The notes under the pieces were generated by a model, which saw only the letters and a list, made by a program, of their open reading frames with translations, was not told where the DNA came from and did no database searches. From Escherichia phage SKA64, in sequence record OM362897.1: a stretch of 64,000 bases of DNA; one strand, written 5' to 3'. Both the position numbers and the translations under genes were made by a program. Position 1 is the first letter of the stretch, and each line of letters starts with the position of its first letter. Positions 31,537-64,000 of the stretch are shown piece after piece.

Positions 31537-31538
31537 CG

Positions 31539-32459: not shown

Positions 32460-32515
32460 GCGGCACCATTGCCGCCCTACGCATTAAATATAAATTATCT
32501 AAGAGATTAGATCAA
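32460..32515 (-). promoter_or_regulatory. promoter + leader hairpin cassette
   Basis: minus strand TTGATC ... TATTTA ... GCGTAGGG + gcggcaccattgccgc. Confidence 0.45.
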
Positions 32516-32518
32516 GGA

Positions 32519-32710: not shown

Positions 32711-32732
32711 AATGTTTTACCTTTTTCGGGGA

Positions 32733-32788
32733 GCGGCACCATTGCCGCCCTACGTGGTAAATATTAGCACACTGGCGATCTGTGTCAA
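32733..32788 (-). promoter_or_regulatory. promoter + leader hairpin cassette
   Basis: minus strand TTGACA, 16 bp, TAATAT, TTACCACGTAGGG + gcggcaccattgccgc. Confidence 0.55.
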
Positions 32789-32794
32789 TACTTT

Positions 32795-33181: not shown

Positions 33182-33195
33182 GTTGTGTCTCTCTT

Positions 33196-33300
33196 TTAGC
33201 CGATACCGTGGGAAGATAGGATCATGTTAGCCATAGTTGCAACCACTCCAACCGATAACGCCAGGCCCACTACTACGACCGTGAAAATTTTCTCTAACAT
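33196..33300 (-). CDS. 34 aa hydrophobic peptide (not in ORF track)
   Basis: MLEKIFTVVVVGLALSVGVVATMANMILSSHGIG between hairpin cassette and next gene. Confidence 0.4.
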   Translation of the reverse strand: MLEKIFTVVVVGLALSVGVVATMANMILSSHGIG

Positions 33301-33318
33301 GATTCTACCCTCATTAAT

Positions 33319-33380
33319 GGGCGTTGCCTTATTGCCCCGCCCTACGAAATACATTCTACCCGATTTATAATTGTTGTCAA
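33319..33380 (-). promoter_or_regulatory. promoter + leader hairpin cassette (variant stem)
   Basis: minus strand TTGACA ... TCGTAGGGCGGGG ... GC stem. Confidence 0.45.
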
Positions 33381-33381
33381 A

Positions 33382-33651
33382 TTATTTTTTCAAGCTTGAC
33401 CACTCAAAACACGGGGCGATCTCGTTAAAACTTGTGCCCTGTAAAGCACATAATTTTTTAGCAATAGCCGCCGTGACCTGGCGCTGTACGCGCGGATCTG
33501 CTACTGATTGGAGAAAGTAGGCGGCTTTATATGTGATCATGCTTTCACCTGTTTCCTTGTTAACATGATGCACTATTTTAGCCTTATCATCTTTTACCAG
33601 GATGTAACCGGATTCGATGGCCTTGATTGCAACGTCTAATGATATTTTCAT
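33382..33651 (-). CDS. hypothetical protein
   Basis: ORF track; intergenic hairpin ggcgggggagtattccccgcc upstream without promoter. Confidence 0.55.
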   Translation of the reverse strand: MKISLDVAIKAIESGYILVKDDKAKIVHHVNKETGESMITYKAAYFLQSVADPRVQRQVTAAIAKKLCALQGTSFNEIAPCFEWSSLKK

Positions 33652-33698
33652 GATTTACCTCTTTATTGACGGCGGGGAATACTCCCCCGCCTCATTAA

Positions 33699-33869
33699 TT
33701 ATTCTTCATCGTCGCCGTTATAGTATTCAATGCCATTTTCATCGGTTACGGTGATGTTAACGCCACCGATAGCAACACGATCACGGGCAAACGTCATAGC
33801 TTCATTTAAATCTTCAGACCAAAAAATATTGTGACCTTTGCGCGATACATAAAACATAGTCGGGATCAT
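33699..33869 (-). CDS. hypothetical protein (56 aa)
   Basis: internal ATG (MIPTMFY) after AGAAGAGAAAC; track extension covers hairpin. Confidence 0.5.
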   Translation of the reverse strand: MIPTMFYVSRKGHNIFWSEDLNEAMTFARDRVAIGGVNITVTDENGIEYYNGDDEE

Positions 33870-33890
33870 GATTTGTTTCTCTTCTGTTGT

Positions 33891-33953
33891 GAGCGGTGGA
33901 CCATTCCGCCGCTCTATGTAATAAACTTTACTACGTTGTTTGCCTACTGTCAA
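33891..33953 (-). promoter_or_regulatory. promoter + leader hairpin cassette
   Basis: minus strand TTGACA, 17 bp, TAAAGT, ACATAGAGCGG + gagcggtggaccattccgccgctc. Confidence 0.5.
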
Positions 33954-33954
33954 A

Positions 33955-34239
33955 TTATTTTTTAATGTTTTGCCCTACAAAATTGATCACTTCCTTAAGC
34001 TGTCTCTCTGTCATGATCGTACCTGGTAACTCTTCTTTAATTTCTTCTGGTAAATAGATATTACCGCGCCAGGTTAACAAACAACCGTTTTGATCTTCGC
34101 AGATAGAATAAGAAAACATCCACTCGCAATCATTCTCAAGCTCCCAAAAACACAAAAAGTCTTCTTTCCCTAAGTTTTCAACGGTTAAGCATAATCCGCG
34201 ACGTGCTGCATAATTAGTTAGGCTTTTTGTAATTTTCAT
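33955..34239 (-). CDS. hypothetical protein
   Basis: internal ATG (MKITKSL) after AAGAGAGAAAAATC. Confidence 0.55.
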   Translation of the reverse strand: MKITKSLTNYAARRGLCLTVENLGKEDFLCFWELENDCEWMFSYSICEDQNGCLLTWRGNIYLPEEIKEELPGTIMTERQLKEVINFVGQNIKK

Positions 34240-34260
34240 GATTTTTCTCTCTTCTTGTGA

Positions 34261-34316
34261 GCGGCACCATTGCCGCCCTACAAGATACATATTATCAGAC
34301 TACGCGGACTTGTCAA
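34261..34316 (-). promoter_or_regulatory. promoter + leader hairpin cassette
   Basis: minus strand TTGACA, 16 bp, TAATAT, CTTGTAGGG + gcggcaccattgccgc. Confidence 0.55.
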
Positions 34317-34317
34317 A

Positions 34318-34428
34318 CTATTTTTTCTTTTTCTTTGCTTCCAACCGTCTAAGGTTACGGCTTGACTTATTGCGCAAGGCGCTTAGATCGTCGTACCCTT
34401 TCCATGCTTGCATATCTTTCGGATTCAT
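34318..34428 (-). CDS. 36 aa basic small protein
   Basis: internal ATG of track ORF 34318..34590 after GGGGGATAAC; MNPKDMQAWKGYDDLSALRNKSSRNLRRLEAKKKKK. Confidence 0.4.
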   Translation of the reverse strand: MNPKDMQAWKGYDDLSALRNKSSRNLRRLEAKKKKK

Positions 34429-34438
34429 GTTATCCCCC

Positions 34439-34717
34439 TTAACGATTATAAACATTATGGATGGCTTCAAAGGCAAGATGACCATAAGCCGCCAAATCGG
34501 GATTGATCCAAGCGTTATCCAACATCGTTTCAAGGACTGTGGAATCATCGTATAAAGCATCATAGAAATCTGCACGGATGATCGTTTCAATGTCGTCCGG
34601 TGTTAGTTTGTCGTTCAACTTGCACACTGTTTCAACGTCAACACCAATTTTCCAATTTTGTAAATTAGTGGTTAACATTGTTTTCATTTCTTCGGTTGTT
34701 AATTTAACGATGGTCAT
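34439..34717 (-). CDS. hypothetical protein
   Basis: ORF track; AGAAGAGAGAAAAAATC RBS. Confidence 0.55.
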   Translation of the reverse strand: MTIVKLTTEEMKTMLTTNLQNWKIGVDVETVCKLNDKLTPDDIETIIRADFYDALYDDSTVLETMLDNAWINPDLAAYGHLAFEAIHNVYNR

Positions 34718-34738
34718 GATTTTTTCTCTCTTCTGTTA

Positions 34739-34796
34739 GGCGGGGCGCTTGTCGCCCCTATGTGATACATCTTATCAGGTTGATTCAGCTTGTCAA
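34739..34796 (-). promoter_or_regulatory. promoter + leader hairpin cassette
   Basis: minus strand TTGACA, 16 bp, TAAGAT, CACATAGGGG + ggcggggcgcttgtcgcccc. Confidence 0.55.
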
Positions 34797-34797
34797 A

Positions 34798-34959
34798 CTA
34801 TTTGTTAGCCGGATTATATGCCAGGACCGCGCCGCTTGCTTTCACACTTTCCGCTTCATAGTTGCGCAGATCGTTTTCTGTAAGATTGAGCGCGATCACT
34901 TCCTCGACTTCAACGCCAGCGACAAGGGCGATCTCTTTGATAATGTCTGTTATTTTCAT
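34798..34959 (-). CDS. hypothetical protein (53 aa)
   Basis: internal ATG (MKITDII) after TAAGGTG. Confidence 0.5.
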   Translation of the reverse strand: MKITDIIKEIALVAGVEVEEVIALNLTENDLRNYEAESVKASGAVLAYNPANK

Positions 34960-34969
34960 GGTGTGCACC

Positions 34970-35089
34970 TTATAAGATGATTGATAAGATAGTGACAACG
35001 AAAGCGATTATACTGATGGCAAATGTCATCTTTTTACCTTCGGATACTGCCGGATTCTCTACCGTGTATTCTACTGTGTACTTGCTCAT
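34970..35089 (-). CDS. 39 aa membrane peptide (not in ORF track)
   Basis: ATG after GAGAGGA; MSKYTVEYTVENPAVSEGKKMTFAISIIAFVVTILSIIL. Confidence 0.4.
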   Translation of the reverse strand: MSKYTVEYTVENPAVSEGKKMTFAISIIAFVVTILSIIL

Positions 35090-35112
35090 CGTGTAATCCT
35101 CTCGTTTGCTTT

Positions 35113-35169
35113 GGGAACTATTCCCGCCGCCCTATGAATTAAATATACACTATCTCAAAATGATTGCAA
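35113..35169 (-). promoter_or_regulatory. promoter + leader hairpin cassette
   Basis: minus strand TTGCAA, 17 bp, TATATT, TCATAGGGCGGCGGG + gggaactattccc. Confidence 0.5.
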
Positions 35170-35186
35170 GCCTTTTTCTAAATTAT

Positions 35187-35471
35187 TTATGCAGTAAACA
35201 AACCATCATTTACAACGGCGGCGATGATCTCCCGTGCCATTGATTCAGGGAAAGGGGCGCTATAGTCCTGGCTTGTCTCATCGGTATCAGTGATCCAATG
35301 ATAAGCTAACGAGTAAAAGCCTTTACTAACTGTTTTCAGTGAGATGATGATCACTCGGTCAAGCTTATTGGTGAATGTTGCCGTTAATGTGTTACCATCC
35401 TGCGTCATGTTGGACAAGTAAGCGGGATCATTAATCAGGGAAAACATTAGCACGGTGTTAGCTTTACTCAT
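35187..35471 (-). CDS. hypothetical protein
   Basis: internal ATG (MSKANTV) after TTGAGGA. Confidence 0.55.
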   Translation of the reverse strand: MSKANTVLMFSLINDPAYLSNMTQDGNTLTATFTNKLDRVIIISLKTVSKGFYSLAYHWITDTDETSQDYSAPFPESMAREIIAAVVNDGLFTA

Positions 35472-35492
35472 GATTGCATCCTCAAAGGGGCG

Positions 35493-35546
35493 CGGCACCA
35501 TTGCCGCCCTACACGATAACTATAACACAATATAAAACAGGATCAA
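35493..35546 (-). promoter_or_regulatory. promoter + leader hairpin cassette
   Basis: minus strand TTGATC ... TATAGT ... GTGTAGGG + gcggcaccattgccgc. Confidence 0.45.
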
Positions 35547-35749
35547 CCTTTATTTTTCCACGGTGTCAGCTTGTTAATCATTGGTGATAAATAGCGTTTA
35601 CCAACGTAAAACAGCACGCCAACTGATGCAACGGCGGCGATCTCATGCATAGCCGACGGGAAACGGGTATCATAATAAGATCCAATAATAGCAATAGCGG
35701 CAACGGCTGCAACGTCGATAATGATTTTTTCTTGTTTTGCGGTGATCAT
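35543..35749 (-). CDS. small membrane protein (68 aa)
   Basis: internal ATG (MITAKQEK) after AAAAAGGTAAA; hydrophobic AAVAAIAIIGSYY. Confidence 0.5.
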   Translation of the reverse strand: MITAKQEKIIIDVAAVAAIAIIGSYYDTRFPSAMHEIAAVASVGVLFYVGKRYLSPMINKLTPWKNKG

Positions 35750-35770
35750 AATATTTACCTTTTTGTATGG

Positions 35771-35829
35771 TGGGGGAACTATTCCCCGCCTGATGTAATA
35801 CAGTTTAACAGGTCCGGTTATGGTGTCAA
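35771..35829 (-). promoter_or_regulatory. promoter + leader hairpin cassette
   Basis: minus strand TTGACA, 16 bp, TAAACT, + ggcggggaatagttccccca hairpin. Confidence 0.5.
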
Positions 35830-35835
35830 CCACTT

Positions 35836-36021
35836 TTAAAGATATTTTATACTGATAACGTTTTCCGGTTTAACCTTGTTGTGATGTGCATCAACATAGA
35901 TCAAACCATCGTCAGAAAAGCCCAGGATCACGCCCTGCGCGATAAAACCGTATTCGTCACGGTAACGCACGGCTATTTTTAATGTTGCGTTGTAGGCTGT
36001 TTTAAGCTCGTTTAAAGTCAT
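35836..36021 (-). CDS. hypothetical protein
   Basis: ORF track. Confidence 0.5.
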   Translation of the reverse strand: MTLNELKTAYNATLKIAVRYRDEYGFIAQGVILGFSDDGLIYVDAHHNKVKPENVISIKYL

Positions 36022-36039
36022 TTTTGTTTATCCTCTACA

Positions 36040-36070
36040 TGTAAAAAGAAAGGGCGCTTGGTGCGCCCTT
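36040..36070 (-). terminator. rho-independent terminator (minus strand)
   Basis: GGGCGCaccaaGCGCCC hairpin followed on minus strand by UUUCUUUUU. Confidence 0.6.
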
Positions 36071-36076
36071 GTTATG

Positions 36077-36223
36077 TTAATTCTCTAAATCCATCCAATT
36101 ATATTTGTCACTCTTCCCGCGCTTTGTTTTATTGCGCTTGTCGCCTTTGCGGATCACTTCCTCATTCCAGGCCTTGCGGATCTTGGAAGATTGAATTTTT
36201 TCTGCACGATTAGATGTATTCAT
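36077..36223 (-). CDS. 48 aa basic small protein (not in ORF track)
   Basis: ATG after AAAGAGGAAAC; MNTSNRAEKIQSSKIRKAWNEEVIRKGDKRNKTKRGKSDKYNWMDLEN. Confidence 0.45.
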   Translation of the reverse strand: MNTSNRAEKIQSSKIRKAWNEEVIRKGDKRNKTKRGKSDKYNWMDLEN

Positions 36224-36243
36224 TTTGTTTCCTCTTTATATGA

Positions 36244-36296
36244 GCGGCACCATTGCCGCTATATTATTAATTTAAACTGTTTTGTAAAATTGTCAA
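36244..36296 (-). promoter_or_regulatory. promoter + leader hairpin cassette
   Basis: minus strand TTGACA ... TAAATT ... gcggcaatggtgccgc. Confidence 0.5.
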
Positions 36297-36302
36297 GGTT
36301 TA

Positions 36303-36656
36303 TCATTCATAAGAGCAAGCAAGGATCACGCCTGCAATATAAAGCCAATAATTTTCCCTTTCTCGTTGGATTTTATCATCGCTGCTATTCTCTTTAATGT
36401 ATCCCCAGGATGTTAACAAGCGATCAATTTCCCAATATTCGAAAGCGATATTAATATCTGATGGCAAACCTTGTAACCATGATGCTATTGCTCTGATAAT
36501 GTTATGATCGTAACGTTTTTGGTTATCGGTATACCAATACTCGGATTTAAAACAGCGCATCAATTCCGCGATCTTCTCTTTATCTTCTGTGATGCCATAC
36601 TTGCTATAATCAATTGAGGCCAGAATATAAAGTTTAATTGCATTTTGTGCTTTCAT
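36303..36656 (-). CDS. hypothetical protein
   Basis: ORF track; AGAGAGACACC RBS. Confidence 0.55.
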   Translation of the reverse strand: MKAQNAIKLYILASIDYSKYGITEDKEKIAELMRCFKSEYWYTDNQKRYDHNIIRAIASWLQGLPSDINIAFEYWEIDRLLTSWGYIKENSSDDKIQRERENYWLYIAGVILACSYE

Positions 36657-36676
36657 GGTGTCTCTCTTCTGTTGTT

Positions 36677-36733
36677 GGCGGCACCATTGCCGCCCTACTT
36701 GTTACATCTTACTGGATTTTTAAAACTTGTCAA
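36677..36733 (-). promoter_or_regulatory. promoter + leader hairpin cassette
   Basis: minus strand TTGACA, 16 bp, TAAGAT, AACAAGTAGGG + ggcggcaatggtgccgcc. Confidence 0.55.
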
Positions 36734-36955
36734 TCATTTTTCTACTATCATTTGATACCCTGTTTCAACGTTAGAAAACACTGTTATCCCGTCCTGGCGT
36801 TCACTCATTAACATACAAGGCGCTAACATCCTTTCTACTGCCTTGCACTCGTTGTAAACGGCGGTTATATCTCCTGCTGCCTTGTCTTCTGTAGTAAATG
36901 TCTCATTTACGTAAACTTGACCAGCGACAACGGCGACAATAGCGAAAGTGATCAT
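36734..36955 (-). CDS. hypothetical protein
   Basis: ORF track; AAGGAAAC RBS; shares first codons ATGATCACTTTCGCTA with gene starting 37196. Confidence 0.55.
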   Translation of the reverse strand: MITFAIVAVVAGQVYVNETFTTEDKAAGDITAVYNECKAVERMLAPCMLMSERQDGITVFSNVETGYQMIVEK

Positions 36956-36989
36956 GATGTTTCCTTGTTAGTAGTGGTTTCTCTTCTCT

Positions 36990-37025
36990 ATAGCGCCCAT
37001 TATAGGCGCTATAACGAAAAGTCAA
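36990..37025 (-). promoter_or_regulatory. promoter + hairpin cassette (variant; -10 inside stem)
   Basis: minus strand TTGACT then atagcgccTATAATgggcgctat palindrome. Confidence 0.4.
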
Positions 37026-37028
37026 CTA

Positions 37029-37196
37029 TTATTTTTTAAGGCTTAAAGTGCCTAGCTTATCAGCGTGACGCAGACCAGGGAAGATCCATTTTCCTGATTC
37101 ATCTTTCACCGGGGCTTTAAAAGTAGCGCCCAGGTTGGCGGCGTTAACTTTACGTGCAACGTTGCGAGCGGCTTCACGGGTAGCGAAAGTGATCAT
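37029..37196 (-). CDS. 55 aa small protein (not in ORF track)
   Basis: ATG after GAGGAAAATATC; MITFATREAARNVARKVNAANLGATFKAPVKDESGKW... Confidence 0.45.
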   Translation of the reverse strand: MITFATREAARNVARKVNAANLGATFKAPVKDESGKWIFPGLRHADKLGTLSLKK

Positions 37197-37220
37197 GATA
37201 TTTTCCTCTTCTCTTTGTTA

Positions 37221-37282
37221 GGCGGTGGACCATTCCGCCGCCTTGATGTAATACAGTTTACTTTATTTTTGCAGTATTGCAA
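37221..37282 (-). promoter_or_regulatory. promoter + leader hairpin cassette
   Basis: minus strand TTGCAA ... hairpin ggcggcggaatggtccaccgcc. Confidence 0.4.
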
Positions 37283-37288
37283 GCGGTT

Positions 37289-37504
37289 TTATGAAATAAA
37301 TGTCAAAGTAAAATCATAATCTTTTGACAGTTTATATTGCACCTTGTTACCGTATATGTCACCTTTACGTAAAGATCCACGGATACCGATAACATCCTTC
37401 ACGTCTTTTAAATTTTTCACGCCTGTAATGTCTTTGTTGAAATACTCGTCATCTGAAAATAAAACTTGCTTTGCATTTTTTAACAAGGTGCGGATATTAG
37501 CCAT
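37289..37504 (-). CDS. hypothetical protein
   Basis: internal ATG (MANIRTLL) after AAGAGAGATTATC. Confidence 0.5.
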   Translation of the reverse strand: MANIRTLLKNAKQVLFSDDEYFNKDITGVKNLKDVKDVIGIRGSLRKGDIYGNKVQYKLSKDYDFTLTFIS

Positions 37505-37526
37505 TTTGATAATCTCTCTTACTAGG

Positions 37527-37584
37527 GGCGGCAATAGTGCCGCCCTATGAATTACATTTTACTAATTTTAGTTGTCTTGTCAAT
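37527..37584 (-). promoter_or_regulatory. promoter + leader hairpin cassette
   Basis: minus strand TTGACA, 16 bp, TAAAAT, TCATAGGG + ggcggcactattgccgcc. Confidence 0.55.
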
Positions 37585-37591
37585 ATTATTT

Positions 37592-37819
37592 TTAGTTTAA
37601 TTGATCCAGGCATAACAGACGATCAACGTTGAGATCGGTCAGGCTAATCGTTGGCACCTGGTAGGATTCGATGTACTCAACGCTCGACCATTGCCCAAAG
37701 TTAGCGACCGCCCAGCTATTCAATGAGGAGTGAAGATCATCCCCTTTCTTCTCGGTGATAACTGCTACTACCTGGGAGATTCCAACCGTGCCGGATACGC
37801 GAACAATAACGATAGCCAT
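37592..37819 (-). CDS. hypothetical protein
   Basis: ORF track; AAAGAAAGGTTATC RBS. Confidence 0.5.
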   Translation of the reverse strand: MAIVIVRVSGTVGISQVVAVITEKKGDDLHSSLNSWAVANFGQWSSVEYIESYQVPTISLTDLNVDRLLCLDQLN

Positions 37820-37841
37820 AATGATAACCTTTCTTTGATTT

Positions 37842-37902
37842 GGCGGGAAACCATTTCCCGCCCTATGCGATAAACTACACCAGATTAAAAAACGTTGTCA
37901 AC
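37842..37902 (-). promoter_or_regulatory. promoter + leader hairpin cassette
   Basis: minus strand TTGACA ... GCATAGGG + ggcgggaaatggtttcccgcc. Confidence 0.5.
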
Positions 37903-37910
37903 TGCTTTTA

Positions 37911-38150
37911 TTACATTCCTACCATAGCGGCACGGATTGCAGTTTTACTATACTTGAAACCATCAGGTGTATGAGTGATTCCATCCTGTTTTAATCTGTA
38001 GCACATCAGATCCGCCGCTTTATCTTTATTGCCGCACTCATTTATTAAACCTACAGCGTATAAGTATAACGATTCATCATTATTAATCCAAAGGCTTACA
38101 TTCCAATGAGTTTTATTTTTGTGACCGTTGTACATTTTAGATTTAGCCAT
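37911..38150 (-). CDS. hypothetical protein
   Basis: ORF track; AAAGAGATTAAC RBS. Confidence 0.5.
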   Translation of the reverse strand: MAKSKMYNGHKNKTHWNVSLWINNDESLYLYAVGLINECGNKDKAADLMCYRLKQDGITHTPDGFKYSKTAIRAAMVGM

Positions 38151-38174
38151 GATGTTAATCTCTTTTTCAGTGAG

Positions 38175-38232
38175 GCGGGAACTATTCCCGCTCTCGATAT
38201 AAGTATTATATGCTTTTTATTCGTGCTGTCAA
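38175..38232 (-). promoter_or_regulatory. promoter + leader hairpin cassette
   Basis: minus strand TTGACA ... TAATAC ... gcgggaatagttcccgc. Confidence 0.5.
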
Positions 38233-38238
38233 TGCTTT

Positions 38239-38604
38239 TTATAAATCTTTTTTACGTTTTACATCGCTTGCATGACTGTATACAGCGATCCCATTATCAC
38301 GGCAAAAGCGGGAAAGGTAGGCATAATTTGAAAACTCTTTACCTTCCAGGTTGATAACCTTGCTAAACTCTTCTAGGGCGACGGTATCAAAATGATCACC
38401 ATAGCCATATTGAAACGGAACGTTAACCACCTCGATCAGTTTACCGCCGATCTCAACGTCAACCATTAAAGAAAAATATGTATTACCGTAGGACCGTTGA
38501 AACCAGCGACGGGCGCTAATATGCACCGCCTCAATGCTGGATAATTCAATTTTAGCCGTGTTAGCCAGGGTAGCATAAGCGGAAACATTAATATTAATAG
38601 CCAT
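38239..38604 (-). CDS. hypothetical protein
   Basis: internal ATG (MAININ) preferred. Confidence 0.5.
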   Translation of the reverse strand: MAININVSAYATLANTAKIELSSIEAVHISARRWFQRSYGNTYFSLMVDVEIGGKLIEVVNVPFQYGYGDHFDTVALEEFSKVINLEGKEFSNYAYLSRFCRDNGIAVYSHASDVKRKKDL

Positions 38605-38636
38605 GATGATAACCTTTTTCATTGTTGGCGGGAAAC

Positions 38637-38696
38637 CACTTCCCGCCCTATGTGGTAAACTATACTAGAATTTTAAACAATGTCAACCGTTTTTAT
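38637..38696 (-). promoter_or_regulatory. promoter + leader hairpin cassette
   Basis: minus strand TTGACA ... TAGTTT ... CACATAGGG + ggcgggaagtggtttcccgcc. Confidence 0.5.
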
Positions 38697-39055
38697 TCGT
38701 AAATTTTACCGCTTTCAGCCCATACCATAACGCGGCGCATACTATCCCAAGTGTTTTGATCCAGGTTTAAGCCGTGCAACTCTTCGGTACTTTCCAGACC
38801 AGGTACCGCCTTGTTGTAAGTCGCATATAAGCGCCCTTGATACTCATACGCCAGAGTAAGATCCGTTTGAATCATCTTTTTAAGCATAGCATTAAGCATC
38901 ATATTAGCGGCATGTTGATCACGTTTTAGCGGTAACATATCAATAAAGGCGCGATAAGCTGAAACATGAATATCAACCGTTTCACGTGGTAAATTTTTCA
39001 TGTCATCGCGGAAAGATACCAGATTAAACATGATAGTATTGATTTGCTTGCTCAT
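38693..39055 (-). CDS. hypothetical protein
   Basis: internal ATG (MSKQINTI) preferred; track extension covers hairpin. Confidence 0.5.
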   Translation of the reverse strand: MSKQINTIMFNLVSFRDDMKNLPRETVDIHVSAYRAFIDMLPLKRDQHAANMMLNAMLKKMIQTDLTLAYEYQGRLYATYNKAVPGLESTEELHGLNLDQNTWDSMRRVMVWAESGKIYE

Positions 39056-39076
39056 TGTGTTACCCTTTTTTGTTTT

Positions 39077-39138
39077 GGCGGGGAAGTATTCCACCGCCCT
39101 ATGTGTTACATCTTATCAGATTAAAAAACGTTGTCAAG
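39077..39138 (-). promoter_or_regulatory. promoter + leader hairpin cassette
   Basis: minus strand TTGACA, 16-17 bp, TAAGAT, ACACATAGGG + ggcggtggaatacttccccgcc. Confidence 0.55.
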
Positions 39139-39155
39139 AATATTTTTAGATAATT

Positions 39156-39437
39156 TTAACTGTATGATCCACATCGTTCGCAGTAGTGATCATCGTCGTC
39201 ATCAGCTACCTGGCTGATAAAGTGATCTACTTTTGCTTTTAGGTTATTATAATTATTTTCTACTTCCTTTAATCGCTCCTGATAGTATCCCAGGGCTTCA
39301 ATATACGCCGCCTCTTCTGTTTTTTCACGCATGGCTAAATTCATGCCGCGCGTATCATCATACAGCCAAAAACCATCGGTGCACTCACTCATTGAAAGGG
39401 TAGGGCTTAACTCTTTATGATTAATTACCTTGCTCAT
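39156..39437 (-). CDS. hypothetical protein
   Basis: internal ATG (MSKVINHK); C-terminal CERCGS. Confidence 0.5.
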   Translation of the reverse strand: MSKVINHKELSPTLSMSECTDGFWLYDDTRGMNLAMREKTEEAAYIEALGYYQERLKEVENNYNNLKAKVDHFISQVADDDDDHYCERCGSYS

Positions 39438-39447
39438 AGTGTGCGCC

Positions 39448-39552
39448 TTATAGAATGATTGAAACAACAATTGCTACAGTGATCCACACTGGAACGGCTA
39501 ACAAAATAGCGTTAATCGTTCCAACCGTCAAACTATTTTCTTTATTAATCAT
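39448..39552 (-). CDS. 34 aa membrane peptide (not in ORF track)
   Basis: MINKENSLTVGTINAILLAVPVWITVAIVVSIIL directly downstream of a cassette. Confidence 0.4.
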   Translation of the reverse strand: MINKENSLTVGTINAILLAVPVWITVAIVVSIIL

Positions 39553-39581
39553 TGTAAGCCTCTTGCATAATTTCACTATGA

Positions 39582-39638
39582 GCGGCACCATTGCCGCCCT
39601 ACGTGGTAAATATTATGCCAGTGGCGGCGATATGTCAA
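39582..39638 (-). promoter_or_regulatory. promoter + leader hairpin cassette
   Basis: minus strand TTGACA ... TAATAT, TTACCACGTAGGG + gcggcaatggtgccgc. Confidence 0.55.
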
Positions 39639-40201
39639 AGACTATTTTCAAAGTTTTCTAGTGCGATCCTTTTTTCTTCCTCTGTTGGCTGATAATCAGG
39701 AAAAGCATCAACACACAACAACGGCGGGATCTCTTCGTACTCTTCCTCTTCCGTTGTCTCCTCGTCTTCCTCCTGGGCTATGGCTGCAATTTTGGCTAAT
39801 TTTCTTTCAGCTTGAATCAATTTACCATCAAGTACGTTTTTTGCCATATTGTAAGCGGTCCAGGTTATGCGCTTACTTTCTAATGCTTCCTCAAGCGCCG
39901 CTATCTTGCTGGGGTATTCATCCAGGACACGAAAAGCCGGATCAACTTTGTACAAAGGATTATCTTTCGCGCCGTCGCTCGCATCTTCCGCACTGGATAA
40001 ATCAGCGTTACCATTTGCCAGCCAGCCAGGGCGCACATAACGCGCTTTTACGTTGCCGTTACTACGTGCTAATCTGTTACCTATTTGCTCACCGCTATAT
40101 CCCGTGGATTCATCGATAAGATGATCGGTAATGATGCGCGGATCATCTGCTTCATGTTTTACCCAAGACTGGATCACATATTCGCGGCCCATATTAACCA
40201 C
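39635..40201 (-). CDS. hypothetical protein with acidic C-terminal region
   Basis: ORF track; AAAAGGTGG RBS. Confidence 0.55.
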   Translation of the reverse strand: MVNMGREYVIQSWVKHEADDPRIITDHLIDESTGYSGEQIGNRLARSNGNVKARYVRPGWLANGNADLSSAEDASDGAKDNPLYKVDPAFRVLDEYPSKIAALEEALESKRITWTAYNMAKNVLDGKLIQAERKLAKIAAIAQEEDEETTEEEEYEEIPPLLCVDAFPDYQPTEEEKRIALENFENSL

Positions 40202-40451
40202 CTTTTTTCAACAATTGGCATACTTTAAAAAGACTTGCTGAATCCTTGCAAGGGTAGAAAGATGTACGATAGTCACGTACGCCAACCTTGCGGATCTCGA
40301 TGTTCTCGCATGTTGTTTGATCAAAGATATTTATTTCATCATGCCCCCTTATATAAACATAGTGGGGATGTATTAACGCATATTTTGCTAATCTGTAAAA
40401 AGCGTTATCTTTGAACGCGATCACGTGACCTTTTAATTTGATGTAAAACAT
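40194..40451 (-). CDS. hypothetical protein
   Basis: ORF track; AAGGTGG RBS. Confidence 0.5.
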   Translation of the reverse strand: MFYIKLKGHVIAFKDNAFYRLAKYALIHPHYVYIRGHDEINIFDQTTCENIEIRKVGVRDYRTSFYPCKDSASLFKVCQLLKKGG

Positions 40452-40468
40452 TCTACCACCTTACAAAT

Positions 40469-40523
40469 AGCGGGAACTATTCCCGCTTTATGTAACATAT
40501 TAACAAATTATTCGTTAATGTCA
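40469..40523 (-). promoter_or_regulatory. promoter + leader hairpin cassette
   Basis: minus strand TTGACA ... TAATAT ... gcgggaatagttcccgc. Confidence 0.5.
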
Positions 40524-40527
40524 AGCC

Positions 40528-40800
40528 TTAAAGCAAAAACGCTACATCTTGCGCTTTTAGTGTAGTATCAACCATTTTCGGGCTTTTATAATCAACAAAG
40601 CGCGCGGTTTTTTCAATAGCGAAACCGAGATAATCTTGTTTATTGAATTTACATTCTTTCTTAAATGTTTCCCGCGCCACGGTGATCGCTGCGTCCAGGG
40701 ATAAACGCCCGTCAATGTTGATATTTGCGAAAGATCCGCCACCGCTCATAGGTTTACCAGTGGTGCCAGTTACGATCATTGTTGCGCTATATGATGCCAT
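40528..40800 (-). CDS. hypothetical protein
   Basis: ORF track; AGAAGAGAGAAATC RBS. Confidence 0.55.
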   Translation of the reverse strand: MASYSATMIVTGTTGKPMSGGGSFANINIDGRLSLDAAITVARETFKKECKFNKQDYLGFAIEKTARFVDYKSPKMVDTTLKAQDVAFLL

Positions 40801-40821
40801 GATGATTTCTCTCTTCTGTTA

Positions 40822-40879
40822 GGCGGGGCGCTTGTCGCCCCTATGTGATACATCTTATCAGGTTGTGGCTTGTTGTCAA
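40822..40879 (-). promoter_or_regulatory. promoter + leader hairpin cassette
   Basis: minus strand TTGACA ... TAAGAT, CACATAGGGG + ggggcgacaagcgccccgcc. Confidence 0.55.
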
Positions 40880-40884
40880 GACTT

Positions 40885-60181: not shown

Positions 60182-60787
60182 ATGCAACATAGTGTAGTAG
60201 TCAACATGCCGAATAGTGGGGATAAATCTTTTGGTGTCCCTGCTAAAAAAGTGTGGAAAGCCCATTTTCATCTTACTTTATCTAACGTTAGTTCTGAAGA
60301 GTTGATGAAAGCAGCTAAGATTATTGGTGCCAAATGCACAACAATTGATTTACATCGGGATACAAAGTCTCAACGTGATCGTATGTTAACAAAGTATCAA
60401 AGCGATCTCGACACTACTTTAATGTTGCAGTGTGTAGAAAAACTTGAGAATGCAGGTTTCAATGTTGTTCGTTACAAACTGGAACGAATGTTTAAACATG
60501 TTGCCTGTGTTCTTTTCATGGATCTAAGTAAAGAAAATTACGGAGAAGTTCACATTAAGACTTCAGCAAGTGATCCCGAAGTAGAAACAAACTTCTTCCG
60601 TATTTCTTCTAATGCTGAAGAAATTGATTACCGATTTTATAATGCTCGCTTATATTCCGCAGAAGATAAGTTGCGTTTCAATGAAGCGTATGATATGCTC
60701 TTGAACAGTGGGATACAGATAAAAGGCTACCACATAGAACAAGTGGTAGTGGACAGTAATCTTAACTTAGACGCATGGTGGGCTTAA
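60182..60787 (+). CDS. hypothetical protein
   Basis: ORF track; GAGGAGATAAG RBS. Confidence 0.55.
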   Translation: MQHSVVVNMPNSGDKSFGVPAKKVWKAHFHLTLSNVSSEELMKAAKIIGAKCTTIDLHRDTKSQRDRMLTKYQSDLDTTLMLQCVEKLENAGFNVVRYKLERMFKHVACVLFMDLSKENYGEVHIKTSASDPEVETNFFRISSNAEEIDYRFYNARLYSAEDKLRFNEAYDMLLNSGIQIKGYHIEQVVVDSNLNLDAWWA

Positions 60788-60788: not shown

Positions 60789-61445
60789 ATGACTATTAAA
60801 CATATCTCTTTTGATGTATGGAACACACTGATCACAGCAAACTCCAATTACGCAGACATGCGAGCCTGGACTATCGCAAAATATGGAGATATTACGGAAG
60901 TTGAAGCAAGAGCAGCTTATAAAAAGATCAAAAAGGAACTGGATAATGCAGCACTTCAAGGCAAAGCCGAGTGTGCAGCATACGCCTGGGAAAGACTTGG
61001 TTCTGAACTTGGGATAACGCCTTGGAAGTCTGCAAAGCTTCGTTTCGAGTGTGAACAGTGGTTCCTTAAGTTTCCACCACACGTAGCCGTAGATCTGCCG
61101 ATGTACTTGCTGTATCTTTCTGGGCGTTATGATTTGAGTATTAAGAGCAATACCAACTTCATATCAGGGGATATTCTGCGTCGTGCTTGTAAGTTTGATA
61201 GTTGGAATTGTTTTGAGTTCACCCATTTCTCGGATGAAGCTTTACTTTGTAAACCAGATCCGCGATTCTTTGCTCGCACGCTCACGTATTCTCCGATCCC
61301 TCTGTTAGGGCACGAAGTGTTGCACGTAGGCGATAGTGAAGAATATGATGGAAAATGTGTTGACTTAGGGTTTAACTTCTGTCATATTAAGAACCCTAAC
61401 GACTTACTAGAGAAACTTAAAAGAGGAGAAATTGTAAATGCGTAA
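60789..61445 (+). CDS. HAD-superfamily hydrolase-like protein
   Basis: ISFDVWNTLI (motif I with Asp nucleophile position), SIKSNTN, HVGDSEEYDGK (motif IV-like). Confidence 0.6.
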   Translation: MTIKHISFDVWNTLITANSNYADMRAWTIAKYGDITEVEARAAYKKIKKELDNAALQGKAECAAYAWERLGSELGITPWKSAKLRFECEQWFLKFPPHVAVDLPMYLLYLSGRYDLSIKSNTNFISGDILRRACKFDSWNCFEFTHFSDEALLCKPDPRFFARTLTYSPIPLLGHEVLHVGDSEEYDGKCVDLGFNFCHIKNPNDLLEKLKRGEIVNA

Positions 61446-62265
61446 TCAAACTCAAATTTTTGCAAATAAATTTGATGACCTGGAAACTGCTACTTTTGAT
61501 ATCCAAGATTATTCAAAATTGAAATTTGGTAGTAACCAAGCTGCGCGTCGTATGGGTAAAGAATTGGCACTTCAGTTTTTTGCTCAAGTGGCAATGAAAC
61601 ATATTGGGGAACAATTTGTTATCATTCCTTCTCCTTACAACCATGTGCATAATGCTGCAACAATGATGACAGATCATTTTATTAATTACTTCAATATGTT
61701 GCAAGCACAATATGATCAAGGTCGTTCAGCAGAACTGGACATTATTCATCGTAAAGTTAGCTATATCAACGATTATGGTTTCTTGGATAAAGCTAGTCGT
61801 AAGAAACTTATTGATGGGGATACATTCTACTGTAACAAAGAATTCTGGGGTGATAAGAAGCTTGTGTTTATTGATGATGTAAATATCACTGGAACTCATG
61901 AAGACAAACTGATTGAGATCCTTGATGAAAATCAAGTTAAAAATGATGTTTACTTCTTGTATTTTGCAAAATACGAAGGTAATCAAGCAGATACCGAAGC
62001 TAAACTGAATTTTAATTATATTAATACACCAGAAGCGTTTGTTAAAATGATTAATGAAGAACGTGATGCACAGTGTCTTGTTCGTCCTATTAAGTATCTT
62101 ATGGGCCAAAATCACGAAGACTTCAAAATCATTCTTAGCCAATTACCACACTACTATGTAGAGCAACTTTTCTTCGGATGTTTGGGAGAAGGTTACAACC
62201 GAATTTCAAAGTATGCCGAAAACTTTGAATTCTTGGATCGTTACACAAAACAACACATTCTGTAA
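61438..62265 (+). CDS. type I phosphoribosyltransferase-fold protein
   Basis: KLVFIDDVNITGTHE matches PRPP-binding loop; overlaps HAD gene stop. Confidence 0.6.
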   Translation: MRNQTQIFANKFDDLETATFDIQDYSKLKFGSNQAARRMGKELALQFFAQVAMKHIGEQFVIIPSPYNHVHNAATMMTDHFINYFNMLQAQYDQGRSAELDIIHRKVSYINDYGFLDKASRKKLIDGDTFYCNKEFWGDKKLVFIDDVNITGTHEDKLIEILDENQVKNDVYFLYFAKYEGNQADTEAKLNFNYINTPEAFVKMINEERDAQCLVRPIKYLMGQNHEDFKIILSQLPHYYVEQLFFGCLGEGYNRISKYAENFEFLDRYTKQHIL

Positions 62266-62278: not shown

Positions 62279-62752
62279 ATGCTTAAAATGAAAACAGGTA
62301 ATCTTATTGATGCCGCTAAAGCAGGTGAAGTAACTGTTATTGCTCATTGTTGCAATTGTATGTGTAATATGGGGGCAGGTATTGCCCCACAAATCAAACG
62401 AGCATTTCCTTACGCATATGCAGCAGACTTAGACACAATGGCTGGTGATCAAAGTAAACTAGGTTGTTTTAGTTTAGGGGTGCCAGACGAACAATCAGAT
62501 CCTTTGGTATATAATCTATACGGGCAGTATCGTTATGGATACAATGCTAAAGGTCGTCAGTTGGACTATGATGCACTTTACGATGCACTAATAGCTATGG
62601 CTAACGATTTGCTTCTCCGTGACCAAAAATGTAAGATCGGCTTACCTATGATTGGCGCTGGATATGCTGGAGGTAATTGGGCTATCATCCAAGTGATGAT
62701 TGAAGAAACTTTAGTAAAAACAGGTCACGATGTGACTATTTATAAACTTTAA
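62279..62752 (+). CDS. macro domain protein
   Basis: ATG after TAAGGAG; VTVIAHCCNCMCNMGAGIAPQI and IGLPMIGAGYAGGNW macro-like blocks. Confidence 0.7.
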   Translation: MLKMKTGNLIDAAKAGEVTVIAHCCNCMCNMGAGIAPQIKRAFPYAYAADLDTMAGDQSKLGCFSLGVPDEQSDPLVYNLYGQYRYGYNAKGRQLDYDALYDALIAMANDLLLRDQKCKIGLPMIGAGYAGGNWAIIQVMIEETLVKTGHDVTIYKL

Positions 62753-62764: not shown

Positions 62765-62986
62765 ATGGGTGTTTTTGCAGGTATTGTTGCAGTGGTAAGC
62801 TTTTTTGTTATTGCTTTTATGCTTAGTTTGATTCCAGCTTGGTTACTGTTGCTGGCTTACAACTATGTTGCTGAAGTTATGGGTCATGCAGATATCACTG
62901 TCCCAGTAACCTTCTGGACCGTGGTTTGTGTTTCGTTTATTCTGGCTGTATTACGAGGAATCTTTTCCTCTCATTCAACAAAATAA
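62765..62986 (+). CDS. small membrane protein
   Basis: ORF track; GAGGAGATTAGT RBS; two hydrophobic helices. Confidence 0.5.
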   Translation: MGVFAGIVAVVSFFVIAFMLSLIPAWLLLLAYNYVAEVMGHADITVPVTFWTVVCVSFILAVLRGIFSSHSTK

Positions 62987-62989: not shown

Positions 62990-63048
62990 TTGACATAGTT
63001 CTTAAAAAGAGTAAGATATATCACATGAAGCGGGGAATAGTTCCCCGC
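62990..63048 (+). promoter_or_regulatory. promoter + leader hairpin cassette (only + strand copy)
   Basis: TTGACA, 16 bp, TAAGAT, then gcggggaatagttccccgc hairpin, then GAGAGGAGAAAAG RBS and ATG 63066. Confidence 0.55.
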
Positions 63049-63065
63049 AAAGAGAGGAGAAAAGA

Positions 63066-64000
63066 ATGCAACTTGGTTTCCCCATTATTGATGTAGTTGT
63101 TTTAGTTGGTATTTTAGCATTGTCTATTGGTATCGATTTCTTTGGTCACAAAGAAAATAAAGAAATTTCATTCAAATCCGCAGTTGATTGGTCGATCTTT
63201 TGGATTGGTGTATCATTAGCTTATTATGGTTTTGTATACTTCCAACATGGTGCCGATTTTGCTAACTTGTTTTTAAGTGGATATGTGTTGGAAAAATCTT
63301 TGTCGGTAGATAACTTAGTAGTATTTGTAGCAGTATTCGCAAGTTTTGGTATTAAAAGCACACACTTGCAGCACAAGATTCTACTTTGGGGTATTGCAGG
63401 TGCGATTGTCTTCCGAGGTGTGTTTGTAGCAGTAGGCACTTACTTGTTAAGTTTGGGCTGGTATGTTAATATCTTCTTCGGTGCGGTCATCCTTTTCTGT
63501 GCAGCTAAAATGGTATTTGCTGGAGATAATGACGCAGAAGTTGATTACTCTAAACACTGGGCTACCCGTATTGTTCGTAAACTGTTCCCTGTATCTAATA
63601 AAATGGATGGGGAGAAGTTCTTCACAATCGAAAATGGTGTTCGTGTAGCAACTCCAGCTTTGGTTTGCGTATTCGTGATGGAAATGGTGGATGTAATCTT
63701 TGCAGTAGATTCGGTTCCAGCGGTGATCGCAGTGACACAAGAACCCCTACTTGTATTCTCTTCGATGTTATGTGCAATCTTAGGTCTACGTGCTCTGTTC
63801 TTTGTTCTTAGTGTCGCACTGAAGTATCTGGTTCACTTGGAGAAAGCAGTTATTGTGGTTCTGGTGTTTGTAGGCGTTAAACTGATGTATCACCCGTTTG
63901 CAGAAACATTGCATGAGAAAATGAGTTTCCTGCCAGCACATATTGATCCAACTATTAGTATGTATATCGTGCTTGGTACTTTGGCCCTTGGTGTTATTGC
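63066..64000 (+). CDS. TerC-family integral membrane protein (partial, runs off window end)
   Basis: open frame from ATG 63066 with no stop to 64000 (absent from track because incomplete); EKSLSVDNL and DVIFAVDSVPAVIAV motifs; multiple TM helices. Confidence 0.75.
   Translation, partial: MQLGFPIIDVVVLVGILALSIGIDFFGHKENKEISFKSAVDWSIFWIGVSLAYYGFVYFQHGADFANLFLSGYVLEKSLSVDNLVVFVAVFASFGIKSTHLQHKILLWGIAGAIVFRGVFVAVGTYLLSLGWYVNIFFGAVILFCAAKMVFAGDNDAEVDYSKHWATRIVRKLFPVSNKMDGEKFFTIENGVRVATPALVCVFVMEMVDVIFAVDSVPAVIAVTQEPLLVFSSMLCAILGLRALFFVLSVALKYLVHLEKAVIVVLVFVGVKLMYHPFAETLHEKMSFLPAHIDPTISMYIVLGTLALGVI

Follow-up and report, generated by a model that had tools for sequence, protein, structure and literature searches.

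A TerC-family membrane protein gene in the Ter module of a Phapecoctavirus genome

TerC is encoded in the ter operon of IncHI2 plasmids, Klebsiella pneumoniae and Escherichia coli O157, an operon associated with tellurite resistance, phage inhibition and colicin resistance. The substrate of TerC proteins is debated, and Mn export (PMC10197570), Zn resistance (PMC12054061) and the metalation of secreted enzymes (PMC10550928) have all been proposed. It has been reported that TerC of K. pneumoniae has a part in resistance to Zn, Mn, tellurite and phages (PMC12054061), and that Mn2+ export by the E. coli relative Alx requires residues E86, D92, E213, D216 and D222 (PMC10197570). Ter systems have also been discussed in phages (PMC7824862, Iyer et al. 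2021; PMC9796965, PhiPsa374; PMC8386662, phiKp34; PMC6141743, ZCKP1). One of these papers (PMC7824862) proposed that they act as anti-superinfection devices and assigned the phosphoribosyltransferase (PRTase) and HAD genes to signal synthesis in such systems. On the regulatory side, PeSL (promoter-early stem-loop) cassettes are known from T4-like phages (PMC2839356, PMC4122927).

The gene examined here lies at the end of a 64,000-nucleotide stretch of Escherichia phage SKA64 (OM362897.1), hereafter the window. That it is phage-borne, as originally predicted, was confirmed by 99.5% DNA identity to Phapecoctavirus records; the window belongs to this genus and is 99.5% identical to phages tuntematon and vB_EcoM-P3322 (P3322) over the compared stretch. 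Many phages, phAPEC8 and phi92 among them, already have a TerC annotation, and in P3322 the label is 'inner membrane protein alx'. Neither the phage TerC gene nor the phage Ter system is new: both have been annotated and treated in the literature before, and the gene is an ordinary one. For experiments on any phage TerC and for transcriptomes covering Phapecoctavirus terC, the searched literature gave annotation-level mentions only.

Translation of the window sequence bore out the predicted open frame at the window end: it opens with the ATG at 63066 on the plus strand and continues for 311 codons without a stop, to position 63998 of 64000. This ATG was taken as the start because the nearest upstream in-frame stop is the TAA at 63012-63014, with no alternative start between the two, and the equivalent start is used by the annotation in all relatives compared. 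The gene had been said to be missing from the list of open reading frames for want of a stop within the window, which holds, since the list leaves out frames that run past either end of the source. It can be described as follows:

63066..64000, plus strand: gene for an integral membrane protein of the TerC family (TerC/Alx subfamily), incomplete at the window end (the first 311 of 324 expected codons)

The full-length gene encodes 324 aa in tuntematon and P3322, so that only 13 codons are absent from the window copy, which ends at codon 311. These final codons and the stop are intact in both phages; in the relatives, the last 13 codons read ASFIFPEKEEATV and are followed by TAA and then by a terminator, GAGCCTCCTTCGGGAGGCTATTTTAT. 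The window protein differs from tuntematon gp093 at 3 of 311 residues (99% identity). The membrane gene at the window end is real and looks intact, and purifying selection, a GC content like that of the phage and the retention of the acidic residues for Mn2+ export (all below) make it look functional. Open reading frames of up to 97 aa are also present on the minus strand within terC, inside a strongly conserved coding frame.

The assignment to the TerC/Alx family, originally made from two motifs, was supported by profile searches. Both motifs are present, LSVDN at aa 79-83 (nt 63300-63314) and DSVPA at aa 215-219 (nt 63708-63722), and scores above the cutoff were obtained with Pfam TerC (PF03741; E 8.7e-39; 133.5 bits with a cutoff of 27.8; profile positions 2-177 of 178 aligned) as well as with the NCBIfam TerC/Alx model TIGR03718 (310.6 bits with a cutoff of 246.4). 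The models of the YkoY and YjbE subfamilies both stayed under their cutoffs (73 bits against 138.5 for YkoY). The protein also matched PHROG 7180 (E 4.1e-88), whose category is 'moron, auxiliary metabolic gene and host takeover'. When the motifs E-K-S-L-S-V-D-N and E-x-x-D-x-x-F-x-x-D-S-V-P were tested, all of E76, D82, N83, E206, D209, D215, S216 and P218 were found in the phage protein. Moreover, phage E76, D82, E206, D209 and D215 align with E86, D92, E213, D216 and D222 of Alx, and these five acidic export residues are invariant in an alignment of 44 homologues.

Topology prediction, which had been suggested as a check of the membrane assignment, gave approximately nine long helices from both hydropathy and an AlphaFold2 model (pLDDT 77) of a relative that shares 96% identity with the window protein. 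Phage TerC is accordingly predicted to be a polytopic inner-membrane protein with about nine transmembrane segments. DeepTMHMM placed 9 transmembrane domains in an integral membrane protein of related O177 phages (PMC10698182), which is taken here to be the orthologue of window TerC. Neither a PDB sequence search nor a Foldseek search of the AlphaFold2 model against the PDB returned a significant match, and hence no solved TerC-like structure could help in the interpretation.

Among characterized proteins, the TerC of the ter operon is nearer to the phage protein than Alx. Over the full length, phage TerC is 47-50% identical to TerC of the IncHI2 terZABCDEF operon, compared with 33-35% to E. 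coli Alx, and Alx was the outlier in a neighbor-joining tree that was midpoint-rooted and carried no bootstrap support; on these grounds, Alx does not appear to be its orthologue. The nearest cellular relatives are of the Ter type; besides the IncHI2 TerC, they include TerC of Haemophilus influenzae, which adjoins a gene set of TerY, a PP2C phosphatase and a kinase. Recent capture of the gene from E. coli was also considered and was ruled out by its phage-like GC content (39.5%, compared with a window mean of 39.2%) and by the low identity to Alx.

The genes upstream of terC in the window include several that resemble components of Ter systems:

60789..61445, plus strand: HAD-like hydrolase (PHROG 14393 'hydrolase', E 3.1e-117), overlapping and paired with the PRTase gene
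61438..62265, plus strand: ComF-like phosphoribosyltransferase, PRTase_3 (Pfam PF15610, E 7.7e-42), a Ter-associated biosynthetic component
62279..62752, plus strand: Macro-domain protein (Pfam Macro, E 7.3e-5; 23.1 bits with the cutoff at 22)
62765..62986, plus strand: hydrophobic ORF of 73 aa (PHROG 16065, E 6.2e-43), 'hypothetical protein' in relatives

The HAD-like gene is annotated as a dehalogenase-hydrolase in phAPEC8, and its Pfam Hydrolase match was weak (E 4.3e-4, 21.2 bits, under the cutoff of 26.4). PRTase genes are likewise found beside the IncHI2 ter operon and in the Ter region of Klebsiella phage FBKp34. The Macro-domain protein matched the PADLOC DarG macrodomain model (E 4.2e-10), and its membership in the Ter module is uncertain. 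Past the window end, TelA (E 3.2e-33), a vWA-TerF-like protein (E 1.6e-37) and TerD (E 3.2e-28) are encoded 2-6 kb downstream in tuntematon and P3322. By the gene content of its surroundings, terC belongs to a phage Ter module, with HAD and PRTase_3 genes upstream and TelA, TerF-vWA and TerD genes downstream in near-identical relatives. Several genes of unknown function lie between terC and TelA/TerD, and terC has its own promoter and terminator, so that neither co-regulation nor a physical interaction can be read from the layout. The same Ter gene set was found in FBKp34, and TerC occurs with TerD, plus TerB or PRTases, in Cronobacter phage A24, Vibrio phage BUCT194 and Proteus phage Privateer. 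PADLOC returned no match for TerC, TelA, TerD or TerF-vWA.

Between the 73-aa ORF, which ends 3 nt before the -35 box, and the terC start codon, three signals can be distinguished:

62990..63017, plus strand: sigma-70-type promoter, -35 TTGACA at 62990-62995, 16-nt spacer, -10 TAAGAT at 63012-63017
63030..63048, plus strand: 5'-UTR hairpin, arms GCGGGGAA (63030-63037) and TTCCCCGC (63041-63048), loop TAG
63052..63059, plus strand: Shine-Dalgarno sequence GAGAGGAG, 6 nt before the ATG, read from the sequence

The promoter matches the consensus at 10 of 12 positions, and transcription would start at approximately 63023-63025. It is kept in tuntematon, P3322, Wec188 and phAPEC8, where the annotation at this position reads 'putative host dependent promoter', and the phi92 version is TTGACT-17-TATAGT. 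The hairpin is a GC-rich element of 8 bp and 19 nt that starts 12 nt after the -10 box; by RNA folding, the hairpin has an energy of -14.6 kcal/mol, and the leader as a whole has z = -2.66. At the same place in phi92, the arms are GCGGAGGA and TCCTCCGC, which amounts to two compensatory base-pair changes, and an AGGAG ribosome-binding site is annotated in phi92 at the place equivalent to GAGAGGAG. The hairpin was also considered as an intrinsic terminator and rejected as such, because a U-run after it is wanting on both strands; a terminator scan found no terminator there.

The original prediction had placed the gene behind a promoter-hairpin cassette, and this cassette proved to be real. The exact pattern TTGACA-N15-18-TAWRAT occurs at 9 sites in the window, the terC promoter among them, against 0.44 expected, and 15 of 28 promoter-like sites in the window have a hairpin 9-13 nt further on, where a hairpin was counted if its folding energy lay past the 5th percentile of 45-mers drawn at random from the window. 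The window thus contains 15 or more cassettes of this kind, the promoter and hairpin before terC being one of them. When RNAalifold was applied to 16 paralogous cassettes, no consensus emerged, since stem and loop lengths vary and the 3' arms fall out of register, and the evidence for the hairpin therefore consists of per-sequence folding against background and of the compensatory changes in phi92. A pattern scan of IMG/VR for orthologous leaders yielded one relevant contig, with a phAPEC8-type cassette, which is too few for covariation statistics. In FBKp34, the cassette before terC is absent. A moron is a self-contained promoter-gene-terminator unit in a phage genome. The predicted signals around terC have this arrangement, with the promoter in front and, in relatives, the terminator GAGCCTCC-TTCG-GGAGGCT-ATTTTAT directly after the stop, all inside a longer co-oriented block.

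The leader differs from that of E. coli alx in what it can hold. The -10 box is separated from the ATG by only 48 nt, which include the single 19-nt hairpin, and the yybP-ykoY aptamer is too large for a leader of this size, so that there is no room for such a riboswitch. Rfam gave no match on the phage leader at E<=1; the E. coli alx leader used as a control was likewise missed (gathering score, E<=1), which makes the Rfam result uninformative, and the absence of the riboswitch is read from the length of the leader.

We put the probability at roughly 60% that the gene encodes a functional TerC-type cation mover, carried as a moron-like early unit, and that it serves as the membrane part of a Ter module conditioning the infected cell. 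Phage TerC would most likely move a divalent cation of the Mn2+ or Zn2+ class across the inner membrane. The gene seems to be built like a moron within a longer rightward block, with a sigma-70 promoter, a hairpin 5' UTR, a strong Shine-Dalgarno sequence and, in relatives, a terminator. Given this host sigma-70 promoter unit of its own, host RNA polymerase should express terC early in infection, and the Mn2+/pH riboswitch that gates E. coli alx would be absent from the unit. TerC would then represent the membrane component of the phage-borne Ter module, whose most likely payoff, following the published proposal for phage Ter systems, may be a conditioning of the envelope and metal status of the infected cell; such conditioning would protect it against superinfecting phages, colicins or chemical stress. 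Four parts of this scheme are inferred: which ion is transported, that expression is early, that TerC works physically with TerD, TelA and TerF, and what the biological gain is. The original suggestion that a phage copy may alter envelope ion homeostasis is likewise an inference.

Several other explanations were weighed against the Ter-module reading. TerC might be a stand-alone, Alx-like Mn2+ exporter that acts independently of TerD, TelA and TerF and only lowers cytoplasmic Mn2+ (or another metal), for example to shield Fe-S and radical enzymes, among them NrdD/NrdG, the anaerobic ribonucleotide reductase encoded close by. This idea, which we regard as unlikely, would agree with the score above the cutoff of the TerC/Alx subfamily model, with the retention of all five Alx export residues, with the monocistronic terC unit, set apart from the other ter genes by its own promoter and terminator, with the presence of nrdD and nrdG 3.5 kb upstream and with the alx label in P3322. 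However, the closer identity is to the ter-operon TerC, with Alx as the outlier of the tree, and the nearest cellular homologues themselves lie in Ter-type neighborhoods; in addition, several phage families that are not related to each other carry TerC along with TerD, TerB, TelA and PRTases, a co-occurrence that argues for joint function. It is quite improbable that TerC is instead a metalation factor that supplies enzymes of the membrane or periplasm with Mn2+ (or a different metal) as they are secreted, like MeeF and MeeY of Bacillus subtilis, with phage-encoded or host envelope enzymes needed in infection as its clients. These two TerC proteins metalate exoenzymes and associate with SecYEG (PMC10550928, PMC12096827), and a cell-wall hydrolase and glycosyltransferases, which act on the envelope, are also encoded in the phage region; however, that evidence comes from Gram-positive TerC paralogues of other subfamilies, the YkoY model scored the phage protein well under its cutoff, and no candidate client enzyme was identified.

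The gene could also be a decaying or neutral passenger, effectively a pseudogene without a role for the phage. In its favor, the relative EP57 has a 56-bp frameshifting deletion in terC, which implies that the gene may be dispensable or that the EP57 record is faulty, and the stop codon of the window copy is not within the window. By the dN/dS values of 0.04-0.18 among Stephanstirmvirinae alleles, at dS up to approximately 2, terC is nevertheless under strong purifying selection. In 170 of 176 phage records, at least 80% of the TerC protein is covered by a match; the catalytic acidic residues do not vary, the GC content is fully adjusted to the phage, and promoter, hairpin and terminator are all conserved. 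The pseudogene reading is thus strongly disfavored, and a passenger role is extremely improbable.

As a discovery, the gene carries little weight, and its residual value is practical. The function of TerC is still debated, and for this question, as for that of phage exclusion by Ter systems, a virulent coliphage that grows on E. coli K-12 and combines a riboswitch-free, early-promoter TerC with TelA, TerD, TerF-vWA and PRTase/HAD offers a tractable test system. If the module excludes superinfecting phages or alters metal tolerance, this would bear on phage-therapy cocktails that contain Phapecoctavirus isolates. A more speculative and, in our view, unlikely extension is that the promoter and GC-hairpin cassette is an undescribed early-gene regulatory element of the Stephanstirmvirinae. 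Placed before terC and at least 14 other early genes, the cassette may serve as a 5' mRNA stabilizer, as a binding site for a phage factor or as a recombination hotspot for the shuffling of accessory genes. If this were true, riboswitch-free TerC would stand under immediate-early control, and the Ter module would rewire envelope and metal physiology, excluding competitors within minutes of infection.

With regard to known cassettes, those of the window resemble PeSL in that both are short repeated units with a strong sigma-70-like promoter, a stem-loop and a Shine-Dalgarno sequence before small accessory genes, and the mosaicism of terC alleles and flanks is compatible with recombination at conserved flanks. 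In PeSL, however, the stem-loop precedes the promoter and functions as a terminator (PMC4122927), whereas the terC hairpin is situated 12 nt downstream of the -10 box, within the 5' UTR and without a U-tract. For this reason, the element is no PeSL, and a terminator role is improbable. With E. coli Alx, phage TerC shares the TerC/Alx subfamily model, a similar length (324 and 321 aa), the 9-TM architecture and the five acidic residues. On the other hand, Alx is a riboswitch- and pH-controlled Mn2+ exporter, whereas the expression of phage terC would be constitutive and early, with no induction by Mn or by alkaline pH.

The ter-operon TerC and the phage protein share both the Pfam family and the NCBIfam subfamily, and TerD-family, TerF-type vWA and PRTase genes are found nearby in both cases. 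The phage version differs in being carried by a virulent myovirus, in having its genes spread over approximately 9 kb amid genes of unknown function instead of a compact operon, and in the separate promoter and terminator of terC; TerZ, TerA, TerB and TerE were not seen, and TelA is present instead. The closest likeness is to other phage-borne Ter systems, in which PRTase and HAD, TerC, TerD, TerF-vWA and TelA are all carried by a tailed phage. Klebsiella phage FBKp34 (phiKp34) belongs to the same subfamily, and its TerC orthologue shows 69% identity; as its terC has no such cassette, the local arrangement and the promoter-hairpin unit of terC are lineage-specific. Compared with these phage systems, nothing essential differs, and the window contains the Phapecoctavirus version.

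The original prediction of a phage-borne TerC-family membrane protein at the window end of Escherichia phage SKA64 is correct both as an observation and in its interpretation, and the gene encodes a bona fide TerC-type predicted membrane transporter that is under selection and belongs to a phage Ter module. The gene and its leader comprise:

62990-62995 and 63012-63017, plus strand: promoter, -35 TTGACA and -10 TAAGAT with a 16-nt spacer
63030-63048, plus strand: 5'-UTR hairpin GCGGGGAA-TAG-TTCCCCGC, 12 nt past the -10 (-14.6 kcal/mol)
63052-63059, plus strand: Shine-Dalgarno sequence GAGAGGAG, 5' of the terC ATG
63066-64000, plus strand: terC, cut by the window end

Translation from the ATG at 63066 yielded 311 codons without a stop, so the frame runs off the window end as described, and it was missing from the ORF list because this list omits ORFs running off an end. 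An in-frame TAA at 63012-63014 without any further start codon up to 63066 makes this start unambiguous, and the equivalent start is annotated in every relative. Both TerC signatures previously recognized are present (LSVDN, aa 79-83; DSVPA, aa 215-219), and no minus-strand ORF within the region exceeds 97 aa, all of them being inside the conserved coding frame. The phage origin of the gene is borne out by the final 1.3 kb of the window, which are 99.5% identical to Escherichia phages vB_EcoM-P3322 (P3322) and tuntematon (both Stephanstirmvirinae, Phapecoctavirus); megablast of the window end matched 127 phage records. The tuntematon gene (gp093, 975 nt, 324 aa, labelled 'membrane protein; integral membrane protein TerC [phAPEC8]') differs from the window protein at 3 of 311 residues, and its length implies that only 13 codons are absent from the window. 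In the relatives, TAA closes the frame after these codons, and a canonical intrinsic terminator comes next (GAGCCTCC-TTCG-GGAGGCT-ATTTTAT).

The protein matched Pfam TerC (E 8.7e-39, 133.5 bits; cutoff 27.8), NCBIfam TIGR03718 'TerC/Alx family metal homeostasis membrane protein' (310.6 bits; cutoff 246.4) and PHROG 7180 (E 4.1e-88; category 'moron, auxiliary metabolic gene and host takeover'), in agreement with the predicted family, and scored under the cutoffs of the NCBIfam YkoY and YjbE subfamily models. Approximately nine long helices were predicted both by hydropathy and in an AlphaFold2 model of a 96% identical relative (pLDDT 77, pTM 0.76), which also has a short beta-hairpin in a cytoplasmic loop. 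A study of O177 phages reported nine DeepTMHMM transmembrane domains in their integral membrane protein (PMC10698182), which is taken to be the orthologue. Neither sequence search nor fold search found a solved structure resembling phage TerC. The residues E86, D92, E213, D216 and D222, required for Mn2+ export by E. coli Alx (PMC10197570), correspond in a BLASTP alignment to phage E76, D82, E206, D209 and D215, all five of which are invariant among 44 aligned homologues.

Nei-Gojobori dN/dS values of about 0.04-0.17 (dS 0.5-1.9) between the window allele and those of phi92, phiWec188, phAPEC8 and FBKp34 point to strong purifying selection. At least 80% of TerC was covered in 170 of 176 tblastn-positive phage records, and terC is intact in all examined relatives except vB_EcoM_EP57 (OR544956.1; positions 967-1885 of the retrieved record, L018), where terC has a 56-bp frameshifting internal deletion and is annotated as two CDSs. 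The EP57 record measures 130.7 kb, about 20 kb less than those of its relatives, and the deletion reflects either genuine loss or faulty assembly. The phage-like GC content of terC (39.5% vs a window mean of 39.2%) rules out recent acquisition from E. coli and indicates a long-term phage resident.

The alleles are mosaic with respect to their flanks. Comparison of three terC regions (L010 1090-2240, L008 8890-10040 and L001 6260-7400 of the retrieved phage relatives) revealed that phiWec188 combines a phAPEC8-type leader with a coding sequence of the tuntematon type (94% amino acid identity), and that phAPEC8 pairs a terminator of the tuntematon type with a coding sequence sharing only 73% identity; this phAPEC8 allele matches that of Klebsiella phage FBKp34 at 88% identity. 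Such mismatches suggest that recombination in the conserved flanks, which hold the promoter and terminator, exchanges terC alleles. Separately, four records labelled as Campylobacter, Pseudomonas or Acinetobacter phages (MG065656.1, MG065650.1, OR584014.1 and OP562383.1; genomes of ~150 kb) carry Phapecoctavirus/Justusliebigvirus terC (73-96% protein identity), and their host labels look doubtful.

The promoter-hairpin cassette was also found as predicted, with AAA, the Shine-Dalgarno sequence and the ATG following the hairpin. The window holds 9 copies of the pattern TTGACA-N15-18-TAWRAT (0.44 expected), and a slightly looser pattern gives 28 sites, 15 of which are followed by 45 nt folding beyond the 5th percentile of random window 45-mers. 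All 15 carry a GC-rich hairpin beginning 9-13 nt after the -10, with no U-run. Fourteen lie on the minus strand between 32.7 and 40.9 kb, 5' of small early ORFs (30657-40884 at widest), and the terC cassette (62990-63066) is the sole plus-strand member. The family thus has at least 15 members, built of TTGACA, 16-17 nt, a TAAGAT-like box, 9-13 nt and a GC-rich hairpin of 6-9 bp (for example, GGGCGGCA-ATGG-TGCCGCYC), with ~10-20 nt from hairpin to Shine-Dalgarno sequence and start codon. The terC cassette is kept in tuntematon, P3322, phiWec188 and phAPEC8, and the phi92 stem (GCGGAGGA/TCCTCCGC) shows two compensatory pair changes; FBKp34 has terC without the cassette. The terC promoter is already annotated in phAPEC8, and neither the rV5 paper nor the phAPEC8 record annotation describes the cassette family. 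terC is probably expressed early. In the P3322 rightward block, the terC cassette is the only one of its kind, and terminators lie before nrdD and after terC, an arrangement that makes terC a moron-like unit.

Among described elements, the PeSL of T4-like phages comes closest, with a stem-loop 5' of the promoter that terminates transcription (PMC4122927). However, the SKA64 hairpin lies in the 5' UTR, downstream of the promoter, and this different geometry rules out a PeSL. A 5'-UTR stabiliser or factor-binding element is our best guess, at low confidence; RNAalifold gave no alignment of the paralogous cassette stems, and the orthologous terC leaders retrieved were too few for statistics. Riboswitch control was considered as well, as cellular Alx is gated by a yybP-ykoY/PRE riboswitch (PMC10197570, PMC12153347). 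The phage leader spans 48 nt from the -10 box to the ATG. A yybP-ykoY-type aptamer is larger than such a leader can hold, and the phage leader is therefore too short for one. Rfam gave no match to the phage leader, but this carries no weight because the same search also missed E. coli's own alx leader (K-12 alx region, L004 2298-2581; nothing at gathering score or E<=1). Negative results of this search for yybP-ykoY-type elements are not to be trusted.

Phage TerC is only 33-35% identical to chromosomal E. coli Alx, vs 46-47% (tblastn) or 49-50% (MAFFT alignment) to TerC of the terZABCDEF operon of IncHI2-type plasmids and 48-54% to 'TerC/Alx' proteins of Pasteurellaceae, Moraxella and Vitreoscilla. 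In a midpoint-rooted neighbor-joining tree without bootstrap support, Alx was the outlier, and Stephanstirmvirinae TerCs clustered with those of Cronobacter phage A24 and Proteus phage Privateer, beside the ter-operon and Pasteurellaceae branches. TerC of Vibrio phage BUCT194 clustered with plasmid TerC (66% identity), which suggests independent acquisition. The H. influenzae homologue (48% identity), among the nearest cellular ones, adjoins genes for TerY (vWA and TerY_C), a PP2C phosphatase and a protein kinase (L014 4001-8999), which is a Ter-type and not an Alx-type riboswitch context. Given this affinity and neighbourhood, the annotation 'alx' is correct at the subfamily level only, and Ter-type TerC is the best name.

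The surroundings of terC, within the window and in tuntematon and P3322, contain:

Upstream, in the window: nrdD and nrdG
60182-60787: 201-aa AbiEi-like protein (two PADLOC AbiEi antitoxin models, E 4.7e-13 and 4.4e-12; no Pfam match), a possible antitoxin mimic
60789-62265: overlapping genes for a HAD-like hydrolase (weak Pfam match) and a ComF-like PRTase_3 (Pfam E 7.7e-42), directly 3' of nrdD/nrdG
62279-62752: Macro-domain protein (Pfam E 7.3e-5; PADLOC DarG macrodomain model, E 4.2e-10), which could be a counter to DarT-type ADP-ribosylation of DNA
62765-62986: conserved 73-aa hydrophobic ORF (PHROG 16065) directly 5' of the terC promoter, which may be a small membrane partner
3' of terC, in tuntematon and P3322: four genes with no assigned function, a SprT-like protein, TelA (E 3.2e-33), a vWA-TerF-like protein (E 1.6e-37), TerD (E 3.2e-28) and a cell-wall hydrolase

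Phage terC has been annotated before and is treated in published work, and Ter systems in phages are noted at annotation level for PhiPsa374 (PMC9796965), phiKp34 (PMC8386662) and ZCKP1 (PMC6141743); experiments on any phage TerC copy were not found in the literature searched. The remaining value lies in an experimentally tractable phage Ter module and in the so far undescribed 5'-UTR hairpin cassette family.

The neighbourhood of terC fits the Ter system of Iyer et al. 2021, in which a nucleoside-like signal is made by PRTase and HAD proteins and sensed by TerB and TerD, membrane transport is altered by TerC, and sub-membrane structures are formed by TelA and TerF-vWA (PMC7824862). The same study noted Ter systems in jumbo phages as well as in 'related smaller tailed phages', with a proposed role against superinfecting phages. 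The HAD-like hydrolase and PRTase_3 are the pair proposed there as signal makers. The same set (TerC, TerF-vWA, two TerD genes, TelA, hydrolase and ComF-like PRTase) is found in Klebsiella phage FBKp34, of the same phage subfamily. Moreover, TerC occurs with TerD-type proteins and PRTases in the Grimontviridae phages A24 and Privateer and with TerD and TerB in the Schitoviridae phage BUCT194, and in the IncHI2 locus, PRTase and ATP-grasp genes adjoin terZABCDEF.
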